The notes under the pieces: model-generated | What the model saw: the letters and a program-made list of their open reading frames with translations, nothing else | Database searches by the model: none | Told to the model about the DNA's origin: nothing | Shown here: positions 31,838-63,944 of the stretch, piece by piece | Position numbering within the stretch: the stretch's first letter is position 1 | How the letters are laid out: every line of letters starts with the position of its first letter | Made by a program: the position numbers and the translations under genes | IMG/VR virus record: IMGVR_UViG_3300001528_000208 | Location: 32,001 to 96,000 of that record | Length of the DNA: 64,000 bases | Reading direction: 5' to 3' (one strand) | Source: a virus | Lineage: Duplodnaviria; Caudoviricetes

Positions 31838-32053
31838 ATGACAGTGGATGAATACATGATTCTTCACAAATACATCTGTGGGAAATTCGGCGGATGTCGT
31901 GACTGCCCAATTAACGATTGGGTTCCGTGTGACATGGAGACGCCAGAAAAGGCAATGGTAAAATGTGCTCTAATCGCCTATGAAAAATATGGTAACGCCG
32001 GTATGCAGACGATGGGTGTTCTGTCGCGTTATTTGAAGGCGGTGATTGTTTGA
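31838..32053 (+). CDS. Small Cys-rich protein, C-terminus AVIV
   Basis: IC....GCRDCPI; downstream of a promoter at 31790. Confidence 0.7.
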   Translation: MTVDEYMILHKYICGKFGGCRDCPINDWVPCDMETPEKAMVKCALIAYEKYGNAGMQTMGVLSRYLKAVIV

Positions 32054-32292
32054 ATGATAAAGATTATGAACTGTTAAACAGTTTTATATGTTCGCGCTAT
32101 GGTTCGTGCGATAATTGTCCGCTGAACAAATACGACGATTGTGATTTTGGGCCAACAAAACAGGAAATCGTGGAAATCGCAAGGGGATTATACGATTTGC
32201 CAAACAATGATGAAATGTTCGGACTTACACACAAGGACGAAGAAAAGGTGCGAAAAATCCTTGAAAATTATCGAAAGGTGGCGATTGTGTGA
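32050..32292 (+). CDS. Small Cys-rich protein, C-terminus VAIV
   Basis: IC....CDNCPL. Confidence 0.7.
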   Translation: MNDKDYELLNSFICSRYGSCDNCPLNKYDDCDFGPTKQEIVEIARGLYDLPNNDEMFGLTHKDEEKVRKILENYRKVAIV

Positions 32293-32513
32293 CAGCAGAA
32301 GATATGAATGTTATACAAGCCATACTTTGCGATAGGGTTGATGAATGTAAGAATTGCCCACTTTTCAGAAGAAAAGGGAACGCTTGCTGGGGAAATTTTT
32401 CAGCAGAAGACGAGGATGATTTCCTTCGCATCGTCCCACTTGTTATCAAACTGACAAACAGCCCTGCCATTAAGAAGTATCTTGCCGGATTTCTGAAGGT
32501 AGGTGTGGTCTGA
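32289..32513 (+). CDS. Small Cys-rich protein, C-terminus VGVV
   Basis: LC....CKNCPL. Confidence 0.7.
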   Translation: MTAEDMNVIQAILCDRVDECKNCPLFRRKGNACWGNFSAEDEDDFLRIVPLVIKLTNSPAIKKYLAGFLKVGVV

Positions 32514-32695
32514 TGTGCAAGTTCTGCGATTATGATTCCAACGACTGCACGATTTTTCAAGATGCTGTCGGCGACTGGTATCTTGACCATGAAACAGGCG
32601 AATGGGATATCTATGAAGACGAATTTGTCCACGATAGAATCTATATAAATTATTGTCCGTTCTGTGGGGAAAGGCTGAAGAAATGTGAAAAGTAG
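32513..32695 (+). CDS. Small Zn-finger protein
   Basis: MCKFC...INYCPFCG. Confidence 0.7.
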   Translation: MCKFCDYDSNDCTIFQDAVGDWYLDHETGEWDIYEDEFVHDRIYINYCPFCGERLKKCEK

Positions 32696-33566
32696 CAACT
32701 ATACTGATATGACGGGATGGATAATGAAAGAACATGGCGTTCCTAATAGTAAACTAACGGTTTTAAGACGTGCAGAAAATAAAGGGCATCATATAATGTG
32801 GGAATGTGTATGTGAATGTGGCAATGATATTGTTGCTGATGGCTATAACATAAAACACAACAAACTTTCTTGCGGTTGCGATAATCCATACTCATTTATT
32901 GATATGACTGGCTGGGTGATGAAAGAACATGGTGTGCCAGAAAGCAAGCTTACCGTAATACGTTTGCATGAAAAGGGCAATTATAAACCAACAACATGGG
33001 AATGTTTATGTGAATGCGGTAATATTTGTATTAAGCCCGGTAATCGTATAAGATTTGGGAATGCTATTTCTTGCGGATGCATTAGTGCTGGAAATAAAAA
33101 ACGGAAACATAAGACTGGAATTGTTGGGGAAGACTACAAAAAATTTTTAACAAGACACCTTAGAATAGTATGGTATGGCATGAAACAAAGATGTTACGAT
33201 AAAGAACATGGTAGTTATAAAAATTATGGAGGACGTGGAATATCGGTATGCAAGAACTGGTTAAACGATTCTCAAAGTTTTATAGATTGGGCTTTTAATA
33301 CAGGTTATGCGCCCGGCTTAACCTTAGATAGAATAGATTGCAATGGAAACTACGACCCAGATAATTGCAGGTGGGCTACGGCAAAAGAACAGGGCAACAA
33401 TAGAAGAACAAATTATTGTATAGAAATTGATGGCGTTATACACACTCTTCAAGAATGGTCTGACATTTCAGGGGTAAATAGAAGTACAATAAAGACCAGA
33501 ATGGGTCAAGGAATGTCTGCAAAAGATGCAATTTTTAATCCCATAAATAATGGAGGTATATCATGA
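32685..33566 (+). CDS. Putative HNH-type homing endonuclease with a duplicated N-terminal domain
   Basis: Two DMTGW.MKEHGVP...WEC.CECGN...SCGC repeats; MKQRC..YGGRGI...LDRID.NGNY.PDNCRW; AT-rich. Confidence 0.8.
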   Translation: MKSSNYTDMTGWIMKEHGVPNSKLTVLRRAENKGHHIMWECVCECGNDIVADGYNIKHNKLSCGCDNPYSFIDMTGWVMKEHGVPESKLTVIRLHEKGNYKPTTWECLCECGNICIKPGNRIRFGNAISCGCISAGNKKRKHKTGIVGEDYKKFLTRHLRIVWYGMKQRCYDKEHGSYKNYGGRGISVCKNWLNDSQSFIDWAFNTGYAPGLTLDRIDCNGNYDPDNCRWATAKEQGNNRRTNYCIEIDGVIHTLQEWSDISGVNRSTIKTRMGQGMSAKDAIFNPINNGGIS

Positions 33567-34024
33567 AGTATATTTGTTCAAAAAGAATGAATATAAAAGC
33601 TATTTCTGGAGAAGTTAATTTTCGGGTTGGGACGGTGTTTAACTGTTCCAACGGGTTGATTACGCATAACGGGAAGGCTATTTGTTATGACCACAGTCAA
33701 AACGCATACGATTATCTATCTTGTGATGATGATGGATTTGGAATTCGCCGCGGACAGCTTGTGCGTGATATTATGGGGCGCTTAAAAAAACGTGACGACA
33801 AGTATCAGGAAAAATGGGATAGAATTTGGATGGATAAATCGCTTCAAAAATATAAAAGAATTGAATTTGCAGATTATTGGCTTTGGAATTATGATTTTTT
33901 TAATGCACCGATCGGCGAACTTGAATATATTCTTGCACGCGTGAAGGGCGAAGTAGAACCGCGAGACGGCGTTACAGAAGATTTTATGGACGAAGAAACG
34001 GTGGTTGAAGATGGCGACGACTGA
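33563..34024 (+). CDS. Hypothetical protein
   Basis: RBS GGAGGT. Confidence 0.65.
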   Translation: MKYICSKRMNIKAISGEVNFRVGTVFNCSNGLITHNGKAICYDHSQNAYDYLSCDDDGFGIRRGQLVRDIMGRLKKRDDKYQEKWDRIWMDKSLQKYKRIEFADYWLWNYDFFNAPIGELEYILARVKGEVEPRDGVTEDFMDEETVVEDGDD

Positions 34025-34187
34025 TTTCTATACAACTTTAGCGGATTTTGCGTGGATTACACCCAAAGATGTCATTACAACTTGGACTTTGCCAACGTGT
34101 GAAATCTATAGCGAAACAGACTGGTGGCGGTCTGCTATGAAGGTATGGTGTAGGTCTGTAAAGCCAAGAACCGCAAAGGTGGTGTAG
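34011..34187 (+). CDS. Small hypothetical protein, C-terminus AKVV
   Basis: Short ORF carrying the shared C-terminal tag. Confidence 0.5.
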   Translation: MATTDFYTTLADFAWITPKDVITTWTLPTCEIYSETDWWRSAMKVWCRSVKPRTAKVV

Positions 34188-34189
34188 CT

Positions 34190-34414
34190 ATGTTCAAGCT
34201 TGGACAAATGGTCTGGTGTAAAGATAAGACAAATTGTGGCGGTGGTTATACAAGAACGACATATCATACGCCATGCGTTGTGTGCGATATACGGAAACAG
34301 AAAGACGGCAAAATCACCGTTGCGCCATTTGAAAACAGCGAATATTTTGAATATTGTTATACGGTAGATGCAGACTTGTTTGAACCGATTCCGTCAGGGG
34401 CGAAGGTGGTGTGA
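34190..34414 (+). CDS. Small SH3/KOW-like protein, C-terminus AKVV
   Basis: MFKLGQMVWC...TYH.PC.V family. Confidence 0.7.
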   Translation: MFKLGQMVWCKDKTNCGGGYTRTTYHTPCVVCDIRKQKDGKITVAPFENSEYFEYCYTVDADLFEPIPSGAKVV

Positions 34415-34419
34415 TATGA

Positions 34420-37476: not shown

Positions 37477-37722
37477 ATGCGTCTTGATAATGTTGGTGGC
37501 GCAGATGTTTGTAGTTTCATTTGTGGCGGTTCAGCGTGTAATCGAAATTGTTGCATGAATCAAGTTTTGGGTCACTGTTATTCTATAGCGCCTGCTTGGA
37601 ATGAATTTCCAGAAAGGCGTGCGGAACTTTTGCGCGTCATGAAGTGGCGTATTGACCATGGCGAACGCACGCTGGCGCAAGCAAATGAAATTGGTGTTTA
37701 TTTTGGTGCAAAGGTGGTGTAA
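37477..37722 (+). CDS. Small Cys-rich protein, C-terminus AKVV
   Basis: RBS AAGGTGGTG. Confidence 0.65.
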   Translation: MRLDNVGGADVCSFICGGSACNRNCCMNQVLGHCYSIAPAWNEFPERRAELLRVMKWRIDHGERTLAQANEIGVYFGAKVV

Positions 37723-37724: not shown

Positions 37725-37955
37725 GTGACTTACGGAGAAATCAATATAGGCGACATTTTAATTGCCGACAGCGAAGACAGAACGTTCCGATATAAGGTTA
37801 CGCACAAGAACGACCGGGCGCGCATGGTTACAGTACAAACCATCGAAGAATACGACCGAAATCTGCAACGCCACGTCCCATATATCGGCGGTGCGTATTC
37901 TGTATTTGCGGAAGACTTCTGTGGGAAGATTCAAAAGAAGGCGGTGGTATTATGA
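37725..37955 (+). CDS. Small beta-barrel-like protein, C-terminus AVVL
   Basis: INIGDIL...YKV. Confidence 0.65.
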   Translation: MTYGEINIGDILIADSEDRTFRYKVTHKNDRARMVTVQTIEEYDRNLQRHVPYIGGAYSVFAEDFCGKIQKKAVVL

Positions 37956-38188
37956 CGATAGACGATTACAGATTGGAAGATATTCTATTTTCTACAGAAA
38001 ATTCAAACTATGCCTTCATGGTTATTGCTATCGACTACGAACACAATCGTGTTAGATTATGTCCAAGCTATCGCCGAAATGGTAATAACATCGCCGACGC
38101 AAATGACGGCATGCCATATTGGCGCGATGCGACCGCAAGTAATTTATACCTATTTAAGCGCGTAAGAAAGGTGGCGAAAATCGTATGA
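37952..38188 (+). CDS. Small hypothetical protein, C-terminus AKIV
   Basis: ATGA-coupled. Confidence 0.65.
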   Translation: MTIDDYRLEDILFSTENSNYAFMVIAIDYEHNRVRLCPSYRRNGNNIADANDGMPYWRDATASNLYLFKRVRKVAKIV

Positions 38189-38517
38189 ATTATTTGGATA
38201 AATATAAAATAACAAACAAAAATTCAAAATTCTATGGTCGCTACGCTTGGATGATTGATTTGCCTGACGAAAATAACCGCGCTCGCTTTATAGTCGATAG
38301 CAACGTCAAGCTTCGCATGAAAATGTCGTCCGTTCAGTTTGTTTCACCGCGCTTTTCGGACGGTTATCGGTTTCGTGATATGGCGCTTGGTGTAGAATAT
38401 GTTATCACGCGAATCAACTGGTCGCATGACAGATATCGGGCAAAATATAAGGGCGCGCTTTGGGAAGTGGCATTTTATCCGTGGAACGTACCAGAACAAA
38501 GGGCGAAGGTGGTATAA
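38185..38517 (+). CDS. Hypothetical protein, C-terminus AKVV
   Basis: ATGA-coupled. Confidence 0.65.
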   Translation: MNYLDKYKITNKNSKFYGRYAWMIDLPDENNRARFIVDSNVKLRMKMSSVQFVSPRFSDGYRFRDMALGVEYVITRINWSHDRYRAKYKGALWEVAFYPWNVPEQRAKVV

Positions 38518-43195: not shown

Positions 43196-43483
43196 ATGAA
43201 CGACTTTGACAAGGCTCTTGATTTTATTCGGAATCACTACTTTTCAATCCTTGTGTTCAACAAGGGTACAAAAGAACTATATGAACGTATCTGTAAAAGG
43301 TATGATGCCGTGCGTGTTGAATACGACGATGCTGTCGGGCTTAGGTTTGGTCTCTATAGGTACGCTGGATATTCAATTTATCCTGCACGATGCTATGAAA
43401 TTTCCGACGGCAGAGGATATTACGACGGTCAGTGGTATTCCGTTCTGTCGTTCGATAGGCGTCCGACGGCAAAGGTGGTGTAA
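43196..43483 (+). CDS. Hypothetical protein, C-terminus AKVV
   Basis: Downstream of a promoter at 43142-43170. Confidence 0.65.
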   Translation: MNDFDKALDFIRNHYFSILVFNKGTKELYERICKRYDAVRVEYDDAVGLRFGLYRYAGYSIYPARCYEISDGRGYYDGQWYSVLSFDRRPTAKVV

Positions 43484-43485: not shown

Positions 43486-43689
43486 ATGTTCAAAGTCGGT
43501 CAAGTTGTTTGGTGTAAGAAAAGGTATCAATACAGCGTTACAAATTATCACGTCAAATGCAGGGTGGTTAAAACGTCTGCAACCTGCGCCATTCGCGTTC
43601 GTGTTATGGAAGGTCATTATTCTGGCAACGAATATCCCGTAGACGGAAGCTATTTTGAATTGGTGCAAAAGAAGGCGGTGGTTGTATGA
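43486..43689 (+). CDS. Small SH3/KOW-like protein, C-terminus AVVV
   Basis: MFKVGQVVWC...TNYHVKC.V. Confidence 0.7.
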   Translation: MFKVGQVVWCKKRYQYSVTNYHVKCRVVKTSATCAIRVRVMEGHYSGNEYPVDGSYFELVQKKAVVV

Positions 43690-43919
43690 AATTCTCGGAT
43701 TTTCGCAAGGGCGACCTTGTGTTTTCTGATGGGAACAAGGGGCGCGTCTGGACTGTTGTAGAAACATCCGCCGTCGGCGTAAGGCTGCTTTGCACACATT
43801 TCCGCGAAGGTGATAAGGTCGGTGAAAAGCTGGGTAAATTCAGCACCTGCGAACCGACTTGGTTCACAGGAAATCCAAAGATTCTTCATGTCGTTTCGCG
43901 TTCTGCAAGGGTAATATAA
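43686..43919 (+). CDS. Small SH3/KOW-like protein, C-terminus ARVI
   Basis: FRKGDLV. Confidence 0.65.
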   Translation: MKFSDFRKGDLVFSDGNKGRVWTVVETSAVGVRLLCTHFREGDKVGEKLGKFSTCEPTWFTGNPKILHVVSRSARVI

Positions 43920-43920: not shown

Positions 43921-44160
43921 ATGGCAAGACTGAAAGCTGAAAAACTGATTCCCGCCTGTCCTATCTGTGGCAACAATATGCAGGTGGAATATAGCGCCAA
44001 CATGAACCAGATTGCTGGAACTGCCGATTGGCATTTGGATTTTGCACCACGCATTAAAATGTGCGCAGACTGTAACAAATCGCTGGTGGAAACTGTGAAC
44101 AAGTGGTTCAAAAAGCAGGATAAAACCGGATTTTATCGTAAGAAGTGGGTGAAAACATGA
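43921..44160 (+). CDS. Zn-ribbon protein
   Basis: CPICG...CADC. Confidence 0.65.
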   Translation: MARLKAEKLIPACPICGNNMQVEYSANMNQIAGTADWHLDFAPRIKMCADCNKSLVETVNKWFKKQDKTGFYRKKWVKT

Positions 44161-44381
44161 ACTTTAACATTGGCGATGTCGTCTGGTGCATCGACCCAAC
44201 CAATAACGGCGGACGTTATCCAATCACCCACTATCATCGTCCTTGCGAAGTTGTGCAAGTCAGAAAAGAAGAAATTCGCGTCAAAGTTCTTGGCGAATGT
44301 GATTACGGCGTCAAGAATCTTGAATTTTGGGTTGACAGAAAGCTGTTTCAGCGTGTAGAATCGAAGGCGAAGGTGATTTGA
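44157..44381 (+). CDS. Small SH3/KOW-like protein, C-terminus AKVI
   Basis: FNIGDVVWC...THYHRPC.V. Confidence 0.7.
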   Translation: MNFNIGDVVWCIDPTNNGGRYPITHYHRPCEVVQVRKEEIRVKVLGECDYGVKNLEFWVDRKLFQRVESKAKVI

Positions 44382-44692
44382 TGAATCTTCGTGAAGAAAT
44401 CGGCGGCGTCAGGCTGAACTGGCAAAAACTTGACGGCATCAATGATATAAAAACGATTCCGTTTATAAATTTTTCCGAAGTCGTTGTGCTTGTCGAATCA
44501 GACAATGATGCCGTGTCTTTTCTTAGAAAAATCGACAAAATATACTGGCATGGCAACTACCTGTGGTTTAATCAAGATGGTGAATATGCTGGATGGGATA
44601 GTGACCTTGACTGGTATCCATCCGAAGATGAAAAATGGGAAACGATTGGAACGTTCTATATTCCCGAAAGAAAGGCGGCGAAAGTTTTATGA
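44381..44692 (+). CDS. Hypothetical protein, C-terminus AKVL
   Basis: TGATG-coupled. Confidence 0.65.
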   Translation: MNLREEIGGVRLNWQKLDGINDIKTIPFINFSEVVVLVESDNDAVSFLRKIDKIYWHGNYLWFNQDGEYAGWDSDLDWYPSEDEKWETIGTFYIPERKAAKVL

Positions 44693-44946
44693 AATACTAC
44701 TGTAACGTTTATCCGCGCGATGGTCGCGACCTTACCTATGTTCACGAAATGGTTAATGGCAAGGTCGTAACCGACCTTGAAAACATCAACGTTGGCGAAC
44801 GTGGTTATATCCGTCCTGCTAATGGTGGCGGCGTTCACACGTCCACAATTCAGGAAGTGGATTATCTGTGCGATGGCGATATTCGCATTGTAACGCGCAA
44901 CAGTATCTATGAACTCACAAGGATGGGTGACGACGATGCGCCTTGA
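44689..44946 (+). CDS. Hypothetical protein
   Basis: HTS.I......I.TRNSIY motif. Confidence 0.65.
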   Translation: MKYYCNVYPRDGRDLTYVHEMVNGKVVTDLENINVGERGYIRPANGGGVHTSTIQEVDYLCDGDIRIVTRNSIYELTRMGDDDAP

Positions 44947-45160
44947 GTGGCTTGATAGGAAGGGCGACCGCACGTTCGTAGGTAATGCTGATAACGTAGA
45001 CCAAGCGTTGGACATGATTGGCGACTGGTGTAAAGAACACGATTTTCAGTCGTTCTATGTGCGGTGGTGCGAATTTTCAGACCATTATTGGTTCGATTAC
45101 GGATCGCACACCTGCTTCTTTGAACTTGCAAAAGGTCTTGACAAAGCGCAAGTTGTGTGA
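44936..45160 (+). CDS. Hypothetical protein, C-terminus AQVV
   Basis: DYGSHT.FF motif. Confidence 0.65.
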   Translation: MRLEWLDRKGDRTFVGNADNVDQALDMIGDWCKEHDFQSFYVRWCEFSDHYWFDYGSHTCFFELAKGLDKAQVV

Positions 45161-45166
45161 TATTAT
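45138..45166 (+). promoter_or_regulatory. SigA-type promoter of ncRNA-1
   Basis: TTGACA-17-TGATATTAT. Confidence 0.8.
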
Positions 45167-45472: not shown

Positions 45473-45763
45473 ATGGCTAAGAAATTTTTTGCATCATTCG
45501 AATCAGTTCCAAACGATTTCGCCGCAGCTAAACTGCGCCTTGGCGAATTTGGTGTGATTCGCGCCAATGGTAATCGCTACAACGTCCTGCCCGTTAAGGA
45601 CAAGACGCCGCTGGATGTTGGCGACAGCGTGTTTACCCGCGCTGGTGGCAATTATGGCATCTACGATATTATTGCGATTGACGACCGCTGGTTTTCTGTT
45701 GGCAAAGGCGACAAGAAAAAGGGTCGCGTTGTGCGTGCTGATATCTATGGGAAGGTGGTCTAA
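45473..45763 (+). CDS. Hypothetical protein, C-terminus GKVV
   Basis: RBS AGGTGG. Confidence 0.65.
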   Translation: MAKKFFASFESVPNDFAAAKLRLGEFGVIRANGNRYNVLPVKDKTPLDVGDSVFTRAGGNYGIYDIIAIDDRWFSVGKGDKKKGRVVRADIYGKVV

Positions 45764-45975
45764 TGAGAAACTATCCAGCTAAGGTTGGCGACCTGCTAAA
45801 ATATGGTTCGACCATATATCGCGTTGTTGGCGTGAATGAATATGGGCGTGTCGATGTGCGACGTGCGTATGTGTTTTCAGGCAAAAATCCTGTTAAAAGC
45901 GATGGTGAACTTATACCAGATATTACTGTAACTGCTTTTGACCGTCGGTTTTTCATTTCTGCGAAGGTGATATAA
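45763..45975 (+). CDS. Small SH3/KOW-like protein, C-terminus AKVI
   Basis: KVGDLL...IYRV; paralog of the next gene. Confidence 0.7.
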   Translation: MRNYPAKVGDLLKYGSTIYRVVGVNEYGRVDVRRAYVFSGKNPVKSDGELIPDITVTAFDRRFFISAKVI

Positions 45976-46199
45976 TGACAAGGGGATATAAACCTAAAGT
46001 CGGACATTTCTTGTGGTATTGTGGTCACATATACCGCATCTTAAAGGTACATGACGACAACAACCATGTTGACGTTCTGCATCATAGTTATAAGACTGTC
46101 GCTGGAAATTTCGTAAAGGTAAGCGATGATGTTCCACTGACATATATAACAGCAGATTCTTTTGAAAAGCGATTTATTCCGTCAGCAAGGGTGGTTTGA
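45975..46199 (+). CDS. Small SH3/KOW-like protein, C-terminus ARVV
   Basis: KVGHFL...IYRI. Confidence 0.7.
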   Translation: MTRGYKPKVGHFLWYCGHIYRILKVHDDNNHVDVLHHSYKTVAGNFVKVSDDVPLTYITADSFEKRFIPSARVV

Positions 46200-46201: not shown

Positions 46202-46408
46202 ATGAAATTCAGGGTTGGTCAGCTTGTTTGGTGCAATACCACCGGACAGTATGTTCAGACGGATTATCACGTCAAGTGTATTGTAACGAACGTTTTAAGA
46301 AACGACTACATTACCGTGCGTATTACCGAAGGAAGATACGCTGGAAACGAATGGGATGTCGAAACCATTTTCTTTGAACTGGTGCAAAACCGCGCAAAAA
46401 TTATCTAA
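46202..46408 (+). CDS. Small SH3/KOW-like protein, C-terminus AKII
   Basis: FRVGQLVWC...TDYHVKC.V; close paralog of 43486. Confidence 0.7.
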   Translation: MKFRVGQLVWCNTTGQYVQTDYHVKCIVTNVLRNDYITVRITEGRYAGNEWDVETIFFELVQNRAKII

Positions 46409-49552: not shown

Positions 49553-49628
49553 GGCCCCGTGGTCAAGTGGTCTAAGACTCCGCCCTTTCAAGGCGGCAAC
49601 GGCAGTCCGAATCTGCTCGGGGCTACCA
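49553..49628 (+). tRNA. tRNA-Glu(TTC)
   Basis: Acceptor GGCCCCG/CGGGGCT, anticodon arm CCGCC-CTTTCAA-GGCGG, T-loop TCCGAAT, encoded CCA. Confidence 0.92.
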
Positions 49629-53134: not shown

Positions 53135-53778
53135 AAAATGTGATTCTTTTTTCTACGCATTGCGCCGACAAGCGCCTGAACAATCGCGTGAACGACTGGC
53201 TGAATAAGCACGGCAAGAATCGTCGCATTGCTGTTATCCCGTCCTATTGGCAGGCGACCACCCGCGAGTATCCGCCCTACTTCGCCGCCAAGATGGGCTT
53301 TGAAGAATACATCATTTGCCCTGTTGGCGAAAACTTCGACAAGAAGTGCTGGGAATATGCGTTGGAAAGCGACGCAATCCTTTTAGAAGGAGGGAACACG
53401 TTTGTCGAATGGACTATGATTCATTTCCGTGGTCTTGATAATGACTTGCGCAAGTTCGCCAATCGCGGTATCCTGATGGGCATTTCTGCCGGTTCGCACA
53501 TCATCAGCCCAACCATCGACCTTGCATCTGTTGCTGACGACAACTATCTTTGTCTTGCTGGCGACGAACTGAACAGCCTTTGTCTTACCGATTTTCTTGT
53601 AAAGCCGCACGCTGGCGGGTGGATGGAACACAAGGCGCTGTTCCGCAACTATGCGACCAAGTACAACAAGCCGGTTTTTATGATTGATGAAGGTCAGGCG
53701 GTGTGGGTTTGCGACCACGGCGTCCGCGAATATGGCGGGCATATCACAAAATTCTTACCATACAAGGACGGTGCGTGA
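53131..53778 (+). CDS. Peptidase S51 (peptidase E)/class I GATase-like protein
   Basis: LEGGNTF, GISAG and PH motifs. Confidence 0.85.
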   Translation: MKNVILFSTHCADKRLNNRVNDWLNKHGKNRRIAVIPSYWQATTREYPPYFAAKMGFEEYIICPVGENFDKKCWEYALESDAILLEGGNTFVEWTMIHFRGLDNDLRKFANRGILMGISAGSHIISPTIDLASVADDNYLCLAGDELNSLCLTDFLVKPHAGGWMEHKALFRNYATKYNKPVFMIDEGQAVWVCDHGVREYGGHITKFLPYKDGA

Positions 53779-54107
53779 TGGAAATTGCTTGTTCCTGTGA
53801 CATTGTGCGCAACAATAATCCAAAATCTAACCGCTTCGGTCAGTGTGGGATTGTCTTGACAACATCGACCGCGTGTGCTTATGTCAATTATCAAGATGGC
53901 AAAACCGTTTATTGCGCCGTCAAAAATTTTGTGCTTGTTAAGCACTTTGAACTTCGTGAAAAGATAGGCAACGAAGCTGTTTTTGCCCGTACATATTGGG
54001 GGAGTCTTGAATTTATTGATGAATACGGTCGCAGAAGACGCCTTAGCCGTGATGAAATGTGGAAGTTGGCGCAGAAATATATCCGTCGCGCCGCCGTGGT
54101 GGTTTGA
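53778..54107 (+). CDS. Hypothetical protein, C-terminus AVVV
   Basis: TGATG-coupled; KOW-like N-terminal half. Confidence 0.6.
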   Translation: MEIACSCDIVRNNNPKSNRFGQCGIVLTTSTACAYVNYQDGKTVYCAVKNFVLVKHFELREKIGNEAVFARTYWGSLEFIDEYGRRRRLSRDEMWKLAQKYIRRAAVVV

Positions 54108-54148
54108 CAAATCATCAACTTTCTGCTATTATAATATAGGTGATGAAA

Positions 54149-54355
54149 ATGAACAGAATTAAAATCGGCGACAAGGTTCTAATCAAAGGCAATTCACGAA
54201 TCCACCACAGCCTGCTTGTTCCATCTATTGCAGAAGTTATCGGTATGGATGCTGTCAGTTTCAATGTTTTTGGGCATGACATCAATGGCAGGACATATAG
54301 CCAGTGGATTTCACCCATTGATATTGAACTGGTAAGAAAGGCGGTGATTGTATGA
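54149..54355 (+). CDS. Small SH3/KOW-like protein, C-terminus AVIV
   Basis: IKIGDKV.I.GNS..HH; promoter at 54104-54132. Confidence 0.7.
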   Translation: MNRIKIGDKVLIKGNSRIHHSLLVPSIAEVIGMDAVSFNVFGHDINGRTYSQWISPIDIELVRKAVIV

Positions 54356-54762
54356 CGCGCGAAGAAAAGAATCAGCACGTTGAGTTTATGAATGACGCGC
54401 TTTGCGACCTTTGTTCCACCTATCAGGATTGCACTTGTGACGGCTGTGAATTTGCGCGCTACATTTCCGTCAACGGTCGTGCCGGCACAATCATTTCTTC
54501 CACCGACATGGGCGACTGGATTGATATGGCGGTGTATATCGAAGGCATTATTTGCCAAGTCATGATGGCTGACGGGAAGCCTGTCGCTATCTGTGATGAC
54601 GTCGGTCTTGTCCGCCTTGGTGATGCCAAAGCAAGCGACGTGGCTGATTTCGCAAGCAATTATGCTGAATTTGACGAAAACGAATGGAACGATTCTTTGC
54701 CGTGCTGGTGGAATGATTCGTTTGGATGTTGGGAAGAGGTAATCGAAAATGCCGGTAAATGA
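54352..54762 (+). CDS. Cys-rich acidic hypothetical protein
   Basis: LCDLC....C.CDGC.F. Confidence 0.65.
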   Translation: MTREEKNQHVEFMNDALCDLCSTYQDCTCDGCEFARYISVNGRAGTIISSTDMGDWIDMAVYIEGIICQVMMADGKPVAICDDVGLVRLGDAKASDVADFASNYAEFDENEWNDSLPCWWNDSFGCWEEVIENAGK

Positions 54763-55030
54763 TTACAATATAGACCGTCTAACCGGAAGAATCTGCGAAG
54801 AATTTATGTCTTGCGAAGATTGTCCGCTTTATCCCCACAAATATCCAACACAAGAACGTATCGAACAGGGCGACCCGACTTTTTGGTGCGATGATGCGTC
54901 TTGGAAAGATGCTGAAATTTCTGCCACGCTTGCATTTCAAGATTTGCTGAAAAATCATCCCGAACTTCGCAAAAAATTTACCGCAGAAGATATCCGCGAA
55001 ATTGGCGTTATGAAAGGGACAATCTTATGA
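54749..55030 (+). CDS. Small Cys-rich protein, C-terminus GTIL
   Basis: IC....CEDCPL. Confidence 0.7.
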   Translation: MPVNDYNIDRLTGRICEEFMSCEDCPLYPHKYPTQERIEQGDPTFWCDDASWKDAEISATLAFQDLLKNHPELRKKFTAEDIREIGVMKGTIL

Positions 55031-55263
55031 AATACGATGGCGAATATCTGCGCGGTTTCATTTGCCGTAATTATATGTGCGACCTTTGCCCACTGACCAA
55101 TAGCGACGATTGTTATTATCGCTGTCGCAAAAACACGCCCGCGACAAGCGAACTTTTGAAAGCTGTTGGAACCTACATGAACACAAAGACACCCGCACAG
55201 CGTAAACAATGCAGTCGTGTTAACGCCATTATGGCGAAATATATAAAGGCGGTGGTGCTGTGA
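55027..55263 (+). CDS. Small Cys-rich protein, C-terminus AVVL
   Basis: IC...MCDLCPL. Confidence 0.7.
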   Translation: MKYDGEYLRGFICRNYMCDLCPLTNSDDCYYRCRKNTPATSELLKAVGTYMNTKTPAQRKQCSRVNAIMAKYIKAVVL

Positions 55264-55730
55264 TGGAAAAGATTTTATATACCTGCCCATTAGGTTTTTT
55301 AATCGCATTATTTATCCCTGTCGCTGTCCTTTTTGTAGGCGCGGTTCGCGAAGCCTATGTTTCCACAAAGAAAGCAATACAAAAGAATCGCCTTAAAAAG
55401 TTTATTAAAGACAATGAACAAAAAGCTGTCCCCTGCCATTGTGGTGGTCATGCGTATATTGAACACCGCTTCGGTGAATTTTACCACATCGGATGCACGG
55501 GTTGTGTTACCGGCTTCACGGACGAAGATATTCCAAAACTTGTCAAGATGTGGAACGACGTCCAAAGCCTTAAAGCTGGCGATTATGTTGACGCAGGTGT
55601 TTTTAAGGGGCGCGTTCAATCAATATCTTGCGGCGAAGCCTATGTTTATGCAGATGTCTATAACACCTATGTCGAAGTTCCGCTGTCCTATTTGAAGAAA
55701 ATCAGACCGTCGTCTGCAAAGGTGGTGTAG
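55263..55730 (+). CDS. TM plus Lar-like Zn ribbon plus KOW-like protein, C-terminus AKVV
   Basis: PCHCGG...CTGC....WN; AGDYV..G.F.G.V. Confidence 0.65.
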   Translation: MEKILYTCPLGFLIALFIPVAVLFVGAVREAYVSTKKAIQKNRLKKFIKDNEQKAVPCHCGGHAYIEHRFGEFYHIGCTGCVTGFTDEDIPKLVKMWNDVQSLKAGDYVDAGVFKGRVQSISCGEAYVYADVYNTYVEVPLSYLKKIRPSSAKVV

Positions 55731-55731: not shown

Positions 55732-55947
55732 ATGAAAACTGGAACCGCGCGTCAAGGTATGCGCGTCAGAATCATCGGCAATCACAATAACCACGGATTT
55801 AAAATTGGCAAAGTGGTAACGCTTCTGGAAAAGGCGTGGTACCCGCCTGACGACCGTGGTTATTCGTTCTATGTAAGATATAGAAAGGGTGTTTTACACA
55901 GCGTTCGTGAAATTGACATAGTGCCGGTCAACGCCACCGTGGTATAG
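55732..55947 (+). CDS. Small SH3/KOW-like protein, C-terminus ATVV
   Basis: GMRVRIIGNHNNHGFKIG.VV; paralog of 61009. Confidence 0.7.
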   Translation: MKTGTARQGMRVRIIGNHNNHGFKIGKVVTLLEKAWYPPDDRGYSFYVRYRKGVLHSVREIDIVPVNATVV

Positions 55948-56006
55948 CTTGACAAGTCAACTTTTTGATGGTACAATATAAGCATGATAAGGAAAGGGGT
56001 ACTACC

Positions 56007-57708: not shown

Positions 57709-58035
57709 ATGAACATAAATGCAATCAAAGGTGTTATCAGAGAAAATCCGCGCGTCATACTATATTTCGGTTCTGATTGCGAATCGTTCATTGCTGTCAC
57801 TAAGGCAACAGGCGGATTTATCCCAGCCCACATAAAAGGTTACACTGAACTTTGCCTATTGTATGCTAATGGCAAATATGATGGTTTCAACCGTGATGGT
57901 AGCATCGAGTTTTTCAAGATGGATTTTTCTACCAAGACTGCATATTATAAACGTTGGGTCGGACTTAATCGCGACCAAGAAGATGAATGGTTGCTGGTGG
58001 ACTTGTCTCACGAAAGAAGGGCGCGAATTGTATGA
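57709..58035 (+). CDS. Hypothetical protein (IYFG..DG family), C-terminus ARIV
   Basis: Paralog of 61215 and 61532. Confidence 0.7.
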   Translation: MNINAIKGVIRENPRVILYFGSDCESFIAVTKATGGFIPAHIKGYTELCLLYANGKYDGFNRDGSIEFFKMDFSTKTAYYKRWVGLNRDQEDEWLLVDLSHERRARIV

Positions 58036-58280
58036 ATTGGATTCGAATAACAGCCAAAAGTCAAAAAGACATTCGCGTTGGTGATTTCGTCAGGACGATA
58101 TATTTCAGTAACACCCTATATAAAGTTCTTTCAATCGAATATGTCGATGATGAAATGTATCTTATGGTTGGCGTTTCTGATAAACATGGCGCAGTGGACG
58201 AAAGATGTATTTACGCCCGTCAACACATAAAATATTTTGGCACCTATTCACCACAGAACAGAAAAGCGCAGGTGATTTGA
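58032..58280 (+). CDS. Small SH3/KOW-like protein, C-terminus AQVI
   Basis: IRVGDFV...YKV. Confidence 0.65.
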   Translation: MNWIRITAKSQKDIRVGDFVRTIYFSNTLYKVLSIEYVDDEMYLMVGVSDKHGAVDERCIYARQHIKYFGTYSPQNRKAQVI

Positions 58281-58501
58281 TGGATTTTCATGTTGGTCAA
58301 AAAGTTATCATAGACAGCGACGATACCGAGTATCTTGAAGACCGTGCTGTTGATAATGGCATGGTCGGTGTAGTCATTCACATTTATGAAGGCAGACGCT
58401 TCCCAATCAAGATAAAGGTTGATAGCCACATCGCGCCTGTCGAATGTTGCTTCAAGCCGGACGAACTGAAACCCGCGCCCGACTGTGCAAAAATTATTTA
58501 G
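58280..58501 (+). CDS. Small SH3/KOW-like protein, C-terminus AKII
   Basis: FHVGQKV...GMVGVV...F..DEL. Confidence 0.7.
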   Translation: MDFHVGQKVIIDSDDTEYLEDRAVDNGMVGVVIHIYEGRRFPIKIKVDSHIAPVECCFKPDELKPAPDCAKII

Positions 58502-58534
58502 ACGCCGAAAGGCGTCTTTTCTTTTGCAAAAATA

Positions 58535-58592: not shown

Positions 58593-58829
58593 ATGAAACC
58601 AAAAATCTTTCGCTGGTTCGTCTACAAATACGAAAACGGCAAGTTCAGCGTCAGCACAATGCACCAGTCACAGAACGCGGCGAATATTTGCGCAGGCGAC
58701 GCGATTGATGATATTTGCGAAGCGCATGGCTATAAGCGCAGGTTCAACGACACGGGTGAAGTTCAGGCATATATCGCGTCCGATGGCGATAAAATCGTCA
58801 CAGCGCGACTGGTAAAGCGGGTGTTCTAA
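58593..58829 (+). CDS. Hypothetical protein
   Basis: RBS AAGGCGGTG. Confidence 0.65.
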   Translation: MKPKIFRWFVYKYENGKFSVSTMHQSQNAANICAGDAIDDICEAHGYKRRFNDTGEVQAYIASDGDKIVTARLVKRVF

Positions 58830-59044
58830 TGAATTATCTTTATAGGGTTAATCAGCGCGTTCGGATTGTAGACAATACTGCAATCCATCACTACGCCCCA
58901 CTTGGGCAGGTTGCAAAAATAAAAAGTCTTACATCGTGGGGCAACAGGGAAGCATATATTGTCACCTGTAAAACAACAAACGGAAAACCTGCACAGGTAA
59001 TTATCGAGCACGACCTGCGTCCAGCGGGTGCGGAGGTGGTGTAA
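58829..59044 (+). CDS. Small SH3/KOW-like protein, C-terminus AEVV
   Basis: V.IV.NT..HHYA...Q.I...DLRP; paralog of 59315. Confidence 0.7.
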   Translation: MNYLYRVNQRVRIVDNTAIHHYAPLGQVAKIKSLTSWGNREAYIVTCKTTNGKPAQVIIEHDLRPAGAEVV

Positions 59045-59045: not shown

Positions 59046-59318
59046 ATGAATATTCCCGACAGTAATGCGCTTGATGCAATCACGGATTGCCTTTGCAGGG
59101 TATATCGCGCAGAAAAAGGCGGCGTCGGTTGTCTTGATTGTCCGTTGCATAAAATAAAAACCAGACATGGTGGCACCATTTGTTCGCTTTATGTTGGTAA
59201 TGACGAAGAAAGACTGGAACTTTTGCAAGCCTGCATTAAGCACGGCAACGCAACTATATTCAAAGATTTGTCGCCAGAATATAAACAATTTGTGACAAGG
59301 ACGGTGACAGTAGTATGA
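59046..59318 (+). CDS. Small Cys-rich protein, C-terminus VTVV
   Basis: LC.......GCLDCPL. Confidence 0.7.
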   Translation: MNIPDSNALDAITDCLCRVYRAEKGGVGCLDCPLHKIKTRHGGTICSLYVGNDEERLELLQACIKHGNATIFKDLSPEYKQFVTRTVTVV

Positions 59319-59524
59319 ATGAATTTCATGTTGGACAAAAGGTGAAAATCGTTGGGAACACACACGAAATTCATTACGCAATTATCCCGCAGATTGGCGA
59401 AATCGTCCGTGCGGGATACCGCGATTGCCGCGTAAAATGTAAAACAATAAATAGTGGTAATAACACGACCACGCAAACAATTTACACTTGCGACTTGCGC
59501 CCAATCGGTGCTGAAATAATTTAA
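59315..59524 (+). CDS. Small SH3/KOW-like protein, C-terminus AEII
   Basis: FHVGQKVKIVGNT..IHYA. Confidence 0.7.
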   Translation: MNEFHVGQKVKIVGNTHEIHYAIIPQIGEIVRAGYRDCRVKCKTINSGNNTTTQTIYTCDLRPIGAEII

Positions 59525-59539
59525 TGGAGGACTAAAAAA

Positions 59540-59935: not shown

Positions 59936-59936
59936 C

Positions 59937-60509: not shown

Positions 60510-60561
60510 GGGTACAACAGGGAAGATAGCATCTTCAATTTATCTGTTGTTGGAGTACAAT

Positions 60562-60741: not shown

Positions 60742-60750
60742 GGTGAAACT

Positions 60751-61008
60751 ATGGATAGAAATATTGTTCTGGAAATTGAGCAGGCATTCTGCGACCATTA
60801 TAATACAAACTGCGATAGGTGTCCAATTAGCAAATACAAAATAGCGGAAGATTTGGCGATGTGTCACTATGCCTTTAACAAGGAATCTACTGAAGAACAA
60901 GTGAATATATTCGTCAACCTTGCGCGTTGGCATTGGAATCACAAGTGGACGCAGGAACTTAGCAATAAGGCAAGAAGAATTATTGGAATAAGGGCGAAGG
61001 TGGTTTGA
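60751..61008 (+). CDS. Small Cys-rich protein, C-terminus AKVV
   Basis: FC.....CDRCPI. Confidence 0.7.
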   Translation: MDRNIVLEIEQAFCDHYNTNCDRCPISKYKIAEDLAMCHYAFNKESTEEQVNIFVNLARWHWNHKWTQELSNKARRIIGIRAKVV

Positions 61009-61218
61009 ATGAAGGTTAAGAAGGGCGACCGTGTGAAAATTGTTGCCAACCACAGCGGACACCAATTCAAGATTGGAACCGTTGTTGAAATTCGCAGCGG
61101 GGACAAAGGCGGTCTTTCTGCTTGGGAACCAAACCATAAACACATGAACCACGGACACGGCGGTTTCTGGTGGATTCGCGAAAATGATTTTATTCCGACA
61201 AAGGTGACGATACTATGA
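61009..61218 (+). CDS. Small SH3/KOW-like protein, C-terminus VTIL
   Basis: KKGDRVKIVANHSGHQFKIG.VV. Confidence 0.7.
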   Translation: MKVKKGDRVKIVANHSGHQFKIGTVVEIRSGDKGGLSAWEPNHKHMNHGHGGFWWIRENDFIPTKVTIL

Positions 61219-61535
61219 CGACCGAACAGATTTTACAAAAGATTAAGCGTAGAATACGAACCTTAATTTATTTTGGCGACAATATCGCACAATTTCAGGA
61301 AGTTGCCGAAGCGATTTATCCTGACTATGCCGACAGGCTTATGGAACAAATCAGCGAATATAATGATGGAACAGAATTTCAACTTGTGCTTCGCACTTTT
61401 CATGGTAGATTCGACGGCTGGAACGTTGAAGATAGCTTGGAATGTTATCGCATACATCTTGAACGGGACACATGCGCCCATAGATATGGTGCGTTTATTA
61501 ACGCGACGAAGGTAAAACGGGCGGTGATACTGTGA
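61215..61535 (+). CDS. Hypothetical protein (IYFG..DGWN family), C-terminus AVIL
   Basis: Paralog of 61532. Confidence 0.7.
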   Translation: MTTEQILQKIKRRIRTLIYFGDNIAQFQEVAEAIYPDYADRLMEQISEYNDGTEFQLVLRTFHGRFDGWNVEDSLECYRIHLERDTCAHRYGAFINATKVKRAVIL

Positions 61536-61861
61536 CAACACAACAAATTATATCTGCAACCAAGAAATGTTATTCGACTGTGATTTACTTCGGCAAGGAT
61601 ATGGAACAGTTTCGCGAAATTCTGCCACGACTTAAATACGTTCGCGGCTATACATACGATGGCATCCTAAGAAACTTAGACGCCTACATTGCTGATGGTG
61701 GCAAAATCGACCTTGTTATTCGCACGGTTGGCGGGTACTTTGATGGCTGGAATTGTTCCAAAAGCGTCGGATTCTACAATATTAACTTTGACACAGGAAC
61801 CTGTCGTCTTACAAACACCACGGTGATTGACGCCAGCAGAAGGACGGTGAAAATTCTATGA
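61532..61861 (+). CDS. Hypothetical protein (IYFG..DGWN family), C-terminus VKIL
   Basis: Paralog of 61215. Confidence 0.7.
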   Translation: MTTQQIISATKKCYSTVIYFGKDMEQFREILPRLKYVRGYTYDGILRNLDAYIADGGKIDLVIRTVGGYFDGWNCSKSVGFYNINFDTGTCRLTNTTVIDASRRTVKIL

Positions 61862-62097
61862 CTAAACGCGAAGCAGCAACCAGCATTATATGCTACTGGA
61901 ATAATTGTCGTAGGGATTGTCCGCTGTGGAACCACGCGCGCAACAGTTGTTCTTGCGAGTTTTATTCTGTCGCGGAATTGCTTAGGATTGCACGCAAGGA
62001 ATATGCGCGGAAATCAAGCGATGTAAGGTGTGGCAAAGAATATCGGCAGATGGTGGAAAATGAGTGGAAGAAGATTGGCGGTGCAATAATTCTATGA
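61858..62097 (+). CDS. Small Cys-rich protein, C-terminus AIIL
   Basis: IC....CRRDCPL. Confidence 0.7.
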   Translation: MTKREAATSIICYWNNCRRDCPLWNHARNSCSCEFYSVAELLRIARKEYARKSSDVRCGKEYRQMVENEWKKIGGAIIL

Positions 62098-62294
62098 TGT
62101 TGAAAGTCGGGGAGACCGTCAAAATCGACGTGGATATGGCAGAACGCTTCAACGTTTCGTTCATTGCTACAGTAAAACAGGTGGATGAAAACGATAAAGA
62201 TTTCACATATCTATTACGTTTGTCTGACGGAAGAGATATCTGGTTTATGAATGAAGATGTGATACCGGCAAAAGCATTATCAAAAGTCGTCTAA
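62094..62294 (+). CDS. Small SH3/KOW-like protein, C-terminus SKVV
   Basis: LKVGETVKI...WF..EDV. Confidence 0.7.
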   Translation: MMLKVGETVKIDVDMAERFNVSFIATVKQVDENDKDFTYLLRLSDGRDIWFMNEDVIPAKALSKVV

Positions 62295-62374
62295 CGCTTG
62301 ACAAAACCATTGTAATTTGCTATTATATCATTAGCGGCGGGGAAGTCCCCAATCTATGCCGCGCGGAGTACATT

Positions 62375-62647: not shown

Positions 62648-62649
62648 GG

Positions 62650-63039
62650 ATGTATTATATTAAGTTTGACTGTTCTGGCAATGCCACAATCTATGAATTT
62701 GAAAAGAAAATGCACGCCATTTGTGGAACATTTGTTCTTGTGAATCGCCTTGTTTCATCAGAGACTGGGTGCGCATCTGAACTTCTGCCGAAACGCGGAA
62801 TTGTGCCCGTATCCGACAAAACAGAAACCGTCAACTTCGCCAGCGTCGAATATAACATCGAAGGCTGGTGTGGACTTTACGGTGAAGGATTTGATGGTTC
62901 TACGTCTATCGCGAATTACAAGCTGAATGATATGACACCCGCCAAAAAGACGGATAAGATGTTTACAGTCGTACACGAGCCCATTGGTGTCTATCGCTTC
63001 ACTCCTCCAATCGCGTATTTTGCGGAAAGATTAAGGTGA
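62650..63039 (+). CDS. Hypothetical protein
   Basis: ORF within an operon. Confidence 0.6.
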   Translation: MYYIKFDCSGNATIYEFEKKMHAICGTFVLVNRLVSSETGCASELLPKRGIVPVSDKTETVNFASVEYNIEGWCGLYGEGFDGSTSIANYKLNDMTPAKKTDKMFTVVHEPIGVYRFTPPIAYFAERLR

Positions 63040-63043
63040 CATT

Positions 63044-63256
63044 ATGAGTTATGCAGAACACATGGCGGCGCTGTATCGCCAAGGCACAATTATCAACCAG
63101 AAGCATCGCATCAACGAAAACGGCGAAGCTGTTACGATGTTCACAATCCGCATGAACCACGTCTACGACAATCTGACGTCGGGCTACTGTGACGGTCTTT
63201 ACCATGTAACAACGGTCAACGGTAGGTTTGCTGGCGCCAAGCGCGTCTATGTGTAA
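63044..63256 (+). CDS. Hypothetical protein
   Basis: RBS AAGGTGA. Confidence 0.6.
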   Translation: MSYAEHMAALYRQGTIINQKHRINENGEAVTMFTIRMNHVYDNLTSGYCDGLYHVTTVNGRFAGAKRVYV

Positions 63257-63267
63257 AGGAGTATAAT

Positions 63268-63549
63268 ATGATTCAATTTATTATCGCCGTTCTGGCGCTT
63301 ATCCTTCTTTACTGCATCGTTTTATGGCTTGTCGGCATCGTTGAAAACGCCGACGAAAAAACAGTCATGTGCCTGCGGACGTTCTACCGTCTGCTGAAAA
63401 ACAACAAGGTGTTTGACATTGATATGTTGTCTGGTATTGGCTACTATAATCAAGGTGGCTACCGCGATTGGGTCATGCCGCGCTGGTCTTGGTATCCGAT
63501 TTTCGTCGCATTCCTTATTGGTAGCGCTTTTCACAAGGATGTAATTTGA
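63268..63549 (+). CDS. Membrane protein
   Basis: RBS AAGGAG; hydrophobic termini. Confidence 0.65.
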   Translation: MIQFIIAVLALILLYCIVLWLVGIVENADEKTVMCLRTFYRLLKNNKVFDIDMLSGIGYYNQGGYRDWVMPRWSWYPIFVAFLIGSAFHKDVI

Positions 63550-63665
63550 TATGCAGGCGCGGTGGAATAATTTTTCACCGCGCTTGACAATTTTATATAG
63601 GCGTGCTATACTATAATTACAGCAGGAAAGGGAAGCCTTTAATTTATCTGCTGTCGGGGTACATC

Positions 63666-63944
63666 ATGGATATTATTGCCGCTTACAATCGCGCGCCAGC
63701 ACAGACGGTGTGCGATGTCTACAAGAAACCATCTGTTGCAAAGAAAACCATCGAGCGCATGATTCTGCAAGAAATGAAAGGCTGCAATGGCTGGGGTTAC
63801 AAGGTGATTTATCATACCTGTCAGCATTTTACCGCTGGATATTTATACGCCAATGGTTATACTGGCGAAATCGTTCTGCGCGTTCATAAACCGCATTACA
63901 CGACTGACATGGAATGGCATCGTACCGATGCAACGGTGGTTTAA
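63666..63944 (+). CDS. Hypothetical protein, C-terminus ATVV
   Basis: Promoter at 63584-63612; structured leader; VYKKPS.AK motif. Confidence 0.65.
   Translation: MDIIAAYNRAPAQTVCDVYKKPSVAKKTIERMILQEMKGCNGWGYKVIYHTCQHFTAGYLYANGYTGEIVLRVHKPHYTTDMEWHRTDATVV

Follow-up and report, generated by a model that had tools for sequence, protein, structure and literature searches.

A four-residue C-terminal tail on unrelated small proteins of a phage, often spelled to serve also as the next gene's ribosome-binding site

We analyzed a window of 64,000 nucleotides, bases 32001-96000 of the 104,805-bp genome of a Caudoviricetes phage (IMG/VR record IMGVR_UViG_3300001528_000208), in which many small proteins end in the tail A-x-[V/I]-[V/I/L]-COOH or a close variant of it. 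With gene calls guided by the Shine-Dalgarno (SD) sequence, 38 of the 73 genes between window positions 31838 and 63944 end in [AGVS]-x-[VI]-[VIL], as do 0 of the 51 genes before position 31800; the same pattern occurs at 0.8% of internal positions. Start codons were chosen by anti-SD duplex energy, by which true starts separate cleanly at about -9 kcal/mol or lower. The motif is lineage-specific, is found on unrelated families, is not needed for the function of ribosome-binding sites (RBSs) and persists where it has no such role. We consider it very likely that the tail is under selection as a peptide. The best explanation that we can offer, put forward tentatively, is that it is a dual-coded C-terminal short linear motif acting as a shared recognition signal, with a C-terminal degron (C-degron) as the leading guess. 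We describe the tail as dual-coded because its layer as an RBS is as real as the selection on the peptide.

Over the whole genome we counted 41 tags, all within one 33-kb block of small genes and three of them just beyond the end of the window. In this block 41 of 78 genes are tagged, compared with 0 of 81 in the other arm, which holds the structural and replication genes; within the block the tail is found on 40 of 61 small proteins (<130 amino acids, aa) and on 1 of 17 large ones. With the last residue numbered P0, the composition of the 41 tails is A33, V5, G2 and S1 at P-3, V28 and I13 at P-1, and V25, L8 and I8 at P0. P-2 is the variable position (K18, V7, T5, R4, Q2, E2, A1), and Lys and Arg are enriched at P-4 and P-5. 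The original prediction, made from the letters of the sequence, had described about 40 small proteins with a common tail that was absent from replication enzymes and nearly all phage tail proteins, and these counts bear it out. Every coordinate and spelling that it quoted proved correct, including AKVV at 34187, 34414, 37722, 38517, 43483, 55730 and 61008, the terminator that follows 58501 and the two promoters (45138-45166 and 62298-62326).

The carriers of the tail belong to several families. When the last eight residues were trimmed, BLAST left 28 separate clusters containing tagged proteins; remote homology would merge many of the SH3-like clusters, and many carriers are paralogous, with a Cys-rich family of 8 or more and about 20 SH3-like proteins. 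Profile-profile comparison (hhalign) of the SH3-like, Cys-rich and IYFG/DGWN families with each other gave probabilities of no more than 2%. For the SH3-like protein at 46202-46408, AlphaFold2 (AF2) predicted a five-strand barrel with a mean predicted local distance difference test (pLDDT) score of 85, which Foldseek aligned with NusG/Spt5 KOW, SH3 and Tudor domains at template modelling (TM) scores of 0.67-0.72 and weak E-values of about 1e-2. The largest group of carriers is thus modelled as a small beta-barrel of five strands, as in solved SH3, KOW and Tudor domains. The AKII tail of this protein (residues 65-68) has pLDDT values below 50 and no secondary structure, and is predicted to be accessible, outside the barrel. 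For the Cys-rich protein at 31838-32053 the model has four helices (mean pLDDT 82.5), and the tail forms the low-confidence, fraying end of helix 4; Foldseek gave no match for this model in the PDB, and Pfam gave no family above threshold for ten tagged proteins. The same tail thus appears on at least two predicted folds and in three sequence-unrelated families, plus several singletons, in agreement with the earlier claim that the carriers fall into at least three unrelated families (SH3/KOW-like, Cys-rich and IYFG-DG).

The second layer of the element is seen at the junctions between genes. In 31 of the 38 window tails the next start lies no more than 5 nt away, through ATGA, TAATG or TGATG overlaps or spacers of 0-5 nt, and we refer to these tails as coupled. 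Their synonymous codons are shaped like an SD: GCR makes up 24 of 24 Ala codons (background 54%), AAG 10 of 13 Lys codons, and GTG 16 of 21 Val codons at P-1 (background 23%). Against the 16S tail, GCR-AAG-GTG-GTN reads as AAAGGtGGTG or AGGTGGT, and GCG-GTG-ATT as GGTGAT. Many copies therefore do double as the RBS of the next gene, as had been claimed. GGTG-type SDs (GGTGG or GGTGAT, not GGAGG) make up about half of the non-coding SDs of this lineage, compared with about 15% in distant loci of phages with a DnaE-type polymerase, and a preference for GGTG-type SDs at the RNA level exists in the lineage. TAA GGTGGTG also occurs in spacers of the structural module, for example at window positions 5203, 11938, 16423 and 17968.

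Given these codons, the short distances to the next start and the GGTG-type SDs in spacers, the tail could be regarded as the mere translation of the next gene's SD in stop-start overlaps, with no meaning as a peptide. Tests that take the reading frame into account make this very improbable. For a frame-aware null, strong SD regions from non-coding spacers of the phage (58, or 72 together with those of a relative) were translated in the real stop-start frames. The null yields the tag about 3% of the time, corresponding to 1.3-1.7 of 47 junctions, and 33 were observed (binomial p about 5e-41); when it was limited to GGTG-type SD regions, 1.7 tags were expected. Overlap with the RBS, once frames are modelled, does not fully explain the motif. 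SD function does not need the tag either, as the anti-SD energy of untagged coupled junctions in the same arm is -9.7 kcal/mol, compared with -10.4 kcal/mol at tagged ones. Depending on frame, an embedded GGTG gives Val, Gly-x or Trp/Cys/stop. The Val frame is used by embedded GGTG cores at 32 of 38 junctions in the small-gene arm, compared with 1 of 10 junctions in the other arm, whose coupled genes use the Gly frame (Fisher p = 2.6e-5). Among non-coding SDs, spacings of d=5 and d=7 are about equally common, and the frame is thus not set by spacing. A[AG]GGTG has GCR before it in 13 of 18 coding and 0 of 6 non-coding cases, and the GC of the Ala codon is unpaired with the anti-SD. Among coupled genes of the phage's other arm 0 of 23 are tagged, and five distant DnaE-phage loci, which likewise have strong SDs and small genes that are coupled, give 0 of 79 small genes, the coupled ends there being the usual E/K/G/R-rich readings of GGAGG. 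The frame bias and the other phages, both named as checks along with the original prediction, support it.

Seven tails of the window have no start within 12 nt (those ending at 45160, 46408, 54107, 55947, 58501, 59524 and 62294), and what comes next is a terminator, a promoter or a separate SD. The codons of these uncoupled tails are those of the background (GCC, GCT, AAA, ATT, ATA and GTC), and their anti-SD energy is -3.9 kcal/mol, compared with -3.4 kcal/mol for the internal background. Uncoupled genes are tagged in 7 of 25 cases (p = 1.6e-8 versus background). Among these seven are the non-SD cases named earlier, each borne out by the sequence: AKII before a terminator, SKVV before a promoter, AEII with a separate GGAGG, and AQVV inside a promoter.

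Metagenomes hold many related contigs of 90-110 kb (100 or more). The same genes are tagged, and the untagged genes remain untagged, in syntenic relatives whose proteins are about 75% and about 55% identical (L007/L011, L009/L012 and L010). The uncoupled tails are common to these lineages, with synonymous or conservative changes: GCG/GCA and GTT/GTC in AQVV, GCA/GCG and ATT/ATC/GTT in the uncoupled AKII/AKIV, and replacement of ATVV by ATLV and of AEII by GKII. Since they are shared by lineages whose proteins are only 55-75% identical, the tails have long been uncoupled. For the Cys-rich family, a profile made without the tail was run against 1.8 billion representatives; the homologues that it found come from different clusters at 50% identity and mostly end in K/R-A-x-[VI]-[VIL] (KAVIV, KAEVI, KASVL, KATVL, RASII and RATII), and the most distant ones lack the tail and have quite different ends. 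In L015 a KASVL tail (GCA TCT GTT TTA) has TAA and then a separate GGAGG behind it, in L014 AKIV is written GCA AAA ATC GTG with GGCGGTGG 3' of the stop, and L013 has AKII and AKIM tails ahead of long gaps. Such tails beside a separate SD or a gap indicate that the tail is a property of a wider clade and persists where it is unable to serve as an SD. KAV[VI]L is kept in all 131 orthologue clusters of two coupled genes (11 of 55027-55263 and 120 of 61215-61535), a conservation that is uninformative because synteny is shared.

Several observations weigh against selection on the peptide as the source of this pattern. The junctions in the null are not independent, because paralogue expansion duplicates a gene along with its junction, and 5 of the 7 uncoupled tails sit on SH3-like proteins. 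Conservation of the last four codons, proposed earlier as a check, leans in the expected direction without being significant: orthologues of uncoupled tails show 10 synonymous to 4 non-synonymous changes in the motif codons and 12 to 9 in the four codons upstream, a substitution test that is underpowered. The uncoupled tail of 53778-54107 is lost in one relative, and another tail is extended to AKVVQL. In the helical Cys-rich family the tail may be partly structural, because it is modelled as the end of the last helix. An origin of the motif at the RNA level is likely, because a GGTG-type SD encodes exactly the motif in one frame and about half of the non-coding SDs are of this type, and part of the excess of tags could be historical. 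Taken further, the tail could be a reading of the SD that was spread by duplication or recombination of genes with their junctions, the uncoupled copies being fossils kept by inertia or by a weak family-specific structural constraint. This would suit the many paralogous carriers, the SH3-like majority of uncoupled tails, the non-significant contrast between synonymous and non-synonymous changes, and the tails that were lost or extended. We nevertheless regard it as unlikely, given the 28 tagged clusters that stay separate after trimming and the three families unrelated by hhalign and by fold. Uncoupled tails, moreover, are up to 5 of 9 bases away from SD spellings and still read A-x-[VI]-[VI], and they recur in the diverged lineages. 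The DNA of the junctions is also heterogeneous in spelling (AKVV, AVIV, VTIL, AIIL) and in overlap geometry (-4, -1, +1, +2), by which spread of a single recombination cassette is ruled out.

Three further accounts take the tail to be meaningful to the cell in some way other than degradation through a specific reader. A hydrophobic, beta-branched C-terminus might lower the level of potentially toxic early proteins, or alter termination or release, with no specific reader. In 1,582 bacterial genomes hydrophobic residues are under-represented at the C-terminus, and they reduce expression, by up to several-fold and partly by degradation (PMC7246954), and the block also contains near-tags (CRIV, RDVV, KRVF, RVYV), with two hydrophobic terminal residues in 43 of its 61 small proteins. 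Such generic tuning predicts neither Ala at P-3 in 33 of 41 tails nor the near-exclusive choice of V/I over L/M/F at P-1, and seems to us quite unlikely. The free tail could instead plug many different small effectors into one hub, either a machine of the host or a conserved protein of the phage, through pocket binding or the addition of a beta-strand and without degradation. Its place as an accessible, low-confidence appendage beyond the SH3-like barrel and the conservation of P0, P-1 and P-3 with P-2 free, which suits a one-sided strand contact, fit this proposal, as does the partial resemblance of A-K-V-V to the LKxh consensus of the ClpX zinc-binding domain (PMC7226468). The pattern is unlike canonical PDZ ligands, and the most conserved untagged proteins of the arm are peptidase-like or without family, none of them like a peptide-binding module; on balance we think pure docking not very likely. 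Loading into capsids or export from the cell has nothing in its favor beyond the shared tail itself and is extremely improbable: the carriers come from the small-gene arm with its many promoters rather than from the structural module, none of the 81 genes of the other arm is tagged, and on inspection no obvious hydrophobic N-terminal segment was seen in carriers except 55263-55730.

In the dual-coded motif reading, which we prefer, A-x-[V/I]-[V/I/L]-COOH would be a short linear motif attached to the folded domains of most small-arm proteins and maintained by selection on the peptide. It probably originated as a Val-frame reading of a GGTG-type SD and would have been fixed later as a peptide signal. 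Where genes are coupled, synonymous codon choice would recruit its 12 bases as the SD site of the next gene; the same bases can serve in this way because GCR-AAG-GTG-GTN and GCG-GTG-ATT-GTN are possible spellings of AKVV and AVIV, respectively. The tail might be read by one host or phage factor as a common recognition signal, and a common reader of some kind is quite conceivable, although we would not yet count on it. A specific reader is favored over generic hydrophobicity because Ala at P-3 is near-invariant, P-1 and P0 are predominantly beta-branched and the tail is accessible on a beta fold. The leading guess is a C-degron or protease-docking signal that would keep the carriers scarce or short-lived, and transient action is plausible for them, being small early proteins; by analogy with known signals, a degron specifically is possible but doubtful. 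In its fullest form, most small early proteins would share one four-residue address, read by a single host AAA+ protease or N-domain or by a phage hub, and be handled, for example cleared, together, with the address doubling as the next RBS. This we offer as a speculative proposal. Of the original prediction, the part that proposed protein-level selection across unrelated families stands on the frame-aware null, the frame bias, the codons and energies of uncoupled tails, the control phages, the unrelated folds and the divergent homologues, whereas the functions that it suggested for the tail as an address are candidates.

We compared the tail with known systems of several kinds. Signals recognized by Clp and other AAA+ proteases (ssrA ALAA/AVAA, MuA RRKKAI, Streptococcus mutans SsbA LPF, and LCN for ClpC in Bacillus subtilis) have 3-6 residues at a free C-terminus, are small or hydrophobic, often have basic residues upstream and are transferable; Clp ATPases of Firmicutes recognize C-terminal signals of this length, known short ones being, for example, LPF, LCN, AVAA and RRKKAI (PMC5143411). 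The phage tail resembles them only in a general way, in being an accessible, small and hydrophobic end, always directly before the stop codon and with frequent upstream K/R. It differs in that A-x-[VI]-[VIL] is not LAA/VAA, RRKKAI, LPF or LCN, nor any described degron (PMC5143411), and in being encoded by the genes of about 40 proteins rather than added by transfer-messenger RNA or confined to few substrates. ClpX's zinc-binding domain binds LKxh-type C-terminal peptides, and the XBR tail by which SspB docks there is a flexible C-terminal peptide with the order small/hydrophobic, basic, x, small hydrophobic, which the phage tail follows in part (PMC7226468). The latter has K at its second position in 18 of 41 cases and R in 4 of 41, ends in V, I or L at the carboxylate itself, and differs in having Ala (33/41) instead of Leu at the first position. 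SspB is a proteobacterial protein. A complex prediction with two copies of B. subtilis ClpX residues 1-62 and the SH3-like protein 34190-34414 gave a score of 0.02 and a mark of 0.32, and bears neither way on binding.

SDs embedded in the 3' ends of upstream genes in coupled operons share with the phage tail the ATGA, TAATG and TGATG overlaps and the SD-shaped synonymous codons, 31 of the 38 tails carrying the next SD. Ordinary embedded SDs give varied E/K/G/R-rich ends, as in the other arm and in the control loci, whereas the phage tail is one peptide in one frame on unrelated proteins and is present in uncoupled genes as well. With viral PDZ-binding motifs (x-S/T-x-hydrophobic or hydrophobic-x-hydrophobic) the tail has in common four residues, a free C-terminus, a V/I/L end and its occurrence on small viral proteins. 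PDZ ligands are defined by P0 and P-2; no cytoplasmic PDZ reader is known, nor was one found here. The tail does not fit the canonical pattern of such ligands because its P-2 is free and P0, P-1 and P-3 are its conserved positions. SDs that lie within upstream genes are well known, as are short degrons and docking peptides at the C-terminus; we found no description in the literature of one four-residue tail on about 40 unrelated phage proteins that is also spelled as the next gene's RBS.

A search for a reader among the conserved untagged proteins of the small-gene arm found nothing resembling a peptide-binding module. The product of 48040-49017 belongs to the phage peptidase family phrog_4191 of the MH clan, with weak similarity to M20/M28/M42 and with poly(Asp) hydrolase and peptidase T as nearest, likewise weakly similar, solved relatives, and that of 53131-53778 is an S51/PepE-like aspartyl dipeptidase. 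Both were rejected as readers, as neither similarity points to recognition of the tail. The two genes, which are exopeptidase-like, are found where the arm is best conserved, with 77-98% identity between lineages. Such genes are unusual in a phage, and each of the two suggests Asp-containing peptides. Two large paralogous proteins (50404-51948 and 52058-53134; 514 and 358 aa), untagged and without a Pfam family, are 87-96% conserved across lineages.

Tagged genes and adjoining sites in the window (coupled: next start codon no more than 5 nt from the tail)
Feature	Position	Strand	Tail	Remarks
Cys-rich helical protein	31838..32053	+	AVIV	coupled by ATGA overlap; AF2 all-alpha model
Cys-rich paralogue	32050..32292	+	VAIV	coupled
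Cys-rich paralogue	32289..32513	+	VGVV	coupled; AEVV in orthologue
Singleton	34011..34187	+	AKVV	coupled
SH3-like protein	34190..34414	+	AKVV	coupled
Cys-containing protein	37477..37722	+	AKVV	coupled; AKVVQL in one relative
Small protein	37725..37955	+	AVVL	coupled
Small protein	37952..38188	+	AKIV	coupled; GCG AAA ATC GTA
110-aa protein	38185..38517	+	AKVV	coupled
95-aa protein	43196..43483	+	AKVV	coupled
SH3-like protein	43486..43689	+	AVVV	coupled
Small protein	43686..43919	+	ARVI	next ATG 43921
SH3-like protein	44157..44381	+	AKVI	coupled
103-aa protein	44381..44692	+	AKVL	coupled; GCG AAA GTT TTA
Singleton	44936..45160	+	AQVV	uncoupled; inside promoter 45138-45166
96-aa protein	45473..45763	+	GKVV	coupled
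Small beta protein	45763..45975	+	AKVI	coupled
Paralogue of 45763..45975	45975..46199	+	ARVV	coupled
SH3-like protein	46202..46408	+	AKII	uncoupled; GCA AAA ATT ATC; own AAGGAG for next gene
109-aa protein	53778..54107	+	AVVV	uncoupled; stop overlaps -35 box of promoter 54104-54132
SH3-like protein	54149..54355	+	AVIV	coupled
Cys-rich paralogue	54749..55030	+	GTIL	coupled
Cys-rich paralogue	55027..55263	+	AVVL	coupled; KAV[VI]L kept in 11 orthologue clusters
155-aa protein, hydrophobic N-terminus and SH3-like C-terminal part	55263..55730	+	AKVV	sole tagged protein >130 aa
SH3-like protein	55732..55947	+	ATVV	uncoupled; GCC ACC GTG GTA; then promoter 55949-55977
IYFG/DG family protein	57709..58035	+	ARIV	coupled
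82-aa protein	58032..58280	+	AQVI	coupled
SH3-like protein	58280..58501	+	AKII	uncoupled; GCA AAA ATT ATT, then terminator 58500-58517
SH3-like protein	58829..59044	+	AEVV	coupled; GCG GAG GTG GTG, a perfect GGAGGTG
Cys-rich family protein	59046..59318	+	VTVV	coupled
SH3-like protein	59315..59524	+	AEII	uncoupled; GCT GAA ATA ATT; separate GGAGG 3' of stop
Cys-rich family protein	60751..61008	+	AKVV	coupled, TGA ATG
SH3-like protein	61009..61218	+	VTIL	coupled
IYFG/DGWN family protein	61215..61535	+	AVIL	coupled; K[KR]AV[VI]L end in 120/120 orthologue clusters
IYFG/DGWN paralogue	61532..61861	+	VKIL	coupled
Cys-rich family protein	61858..62097	+	AIIL	coupled; AKVV in orthologue
SH3-like protein	62094..62294	+	SKVV	uncoupled; TCA AAA GTC GTC; then promoter 62298-62326
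92-aa protein	63666..63944	+	ATVV	coupled, TAA CT ATG
Intrinsic-terminator-like hairpin and T-run	58500..58517	+		directly 3' of AKII stop codon
Promoter-like TTGACA-17-TATTAT, TG-extended	45138..45166	+		overlaps AQVV tail and stop
Promoter-like TTGACA-17-TATTAT	62298..62326	+		3' of SKVV tail
Promoter-like sites (starts include)	45138, 46971, 49014, 49507, 50325, 51996, 54104, 55949, 58535, 60479, 62298, 63584	+		

The credible genes of the window all lie on the + strand. The genome consists of a structural/replication arm of large genes and the 33-kb arm of small genes (median about 75-85 aa), which has many promoter-like sites and is probably the early, host-takeover arm. About a dozen near-identical sites of this kind, with the consensus TTGACA, 17 nt, TATTAT/TACAAT and a TG-extended -10, punctuate the arm on the + strand between 45138 and 63612, and several overlap the stop codon of the preceding gene. 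A lone phage-encoded tRNA-Glu (anticodon UUC) is found at 49553-49628, within about 0.8 kb where the SD-guided caller placed no gene. Between the 110-aa AKVV protein and a PG_binding_1 protein there is a slot (38520-39191 in the window; L007:5821-6921, L009:2293-3641 and L010:3460-4155) whose content varies by lineage, holding a D12 methyltransferase-like gene, a radical SAM gene, or an unknown gene with an acetyltransferase; it is a variable cassette hot-spot.

The polymerase of the phage is of the DnaE type and at most 43% identical to the DnaE of large Clostridioides and Bacillus phages (tblastn), and megablast of the DnaE gene against the phage collection gave no match. In the more divergent tag-bearing relative L014 (2978-7992) DnaE is interrupted by an intein (Hint/Intein_splicing), with a LAGLIDADG gene between the two DnaE pieces. 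An IS605-family TnpB (OrfB_IS605 with a Cas12f1-like TNB) is encoded at 40642-41742 of the window and at L009:10828-11886 and L011:19543-20649; as its position differs among the phage and these two relatives, the element appears to be mobile within the lineage. Its closest bacterial copies, at about 75% identity, are in gut Lachnospiraceae genomes, a similarity that gives a weak hint of the host, suggestive but not decisive. The host is probably a member of the Clostridia.

If one factor reads the tail, about 40 phage proteins of unknown function would share a simple handle of four residues that can be transferred. The tail could then offer a view of how a phage of the gut-Clostridia type manages its early effectors, and a new degron or docking tag for Gram-positive anaerobes. 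The element is also a clean natural case of dual coding, with a peptide signal and a translation-initiation signal in the same 12 bases, and it carries a warning for annotation: where C-termini are conserved in compact operons of phages, a test that takes the frame into account is needed before they are put down to the RBS. Even on the conservative reading, that of an SD-derived peptide that was later constrained, the tail informs the origin of short linear motifs.

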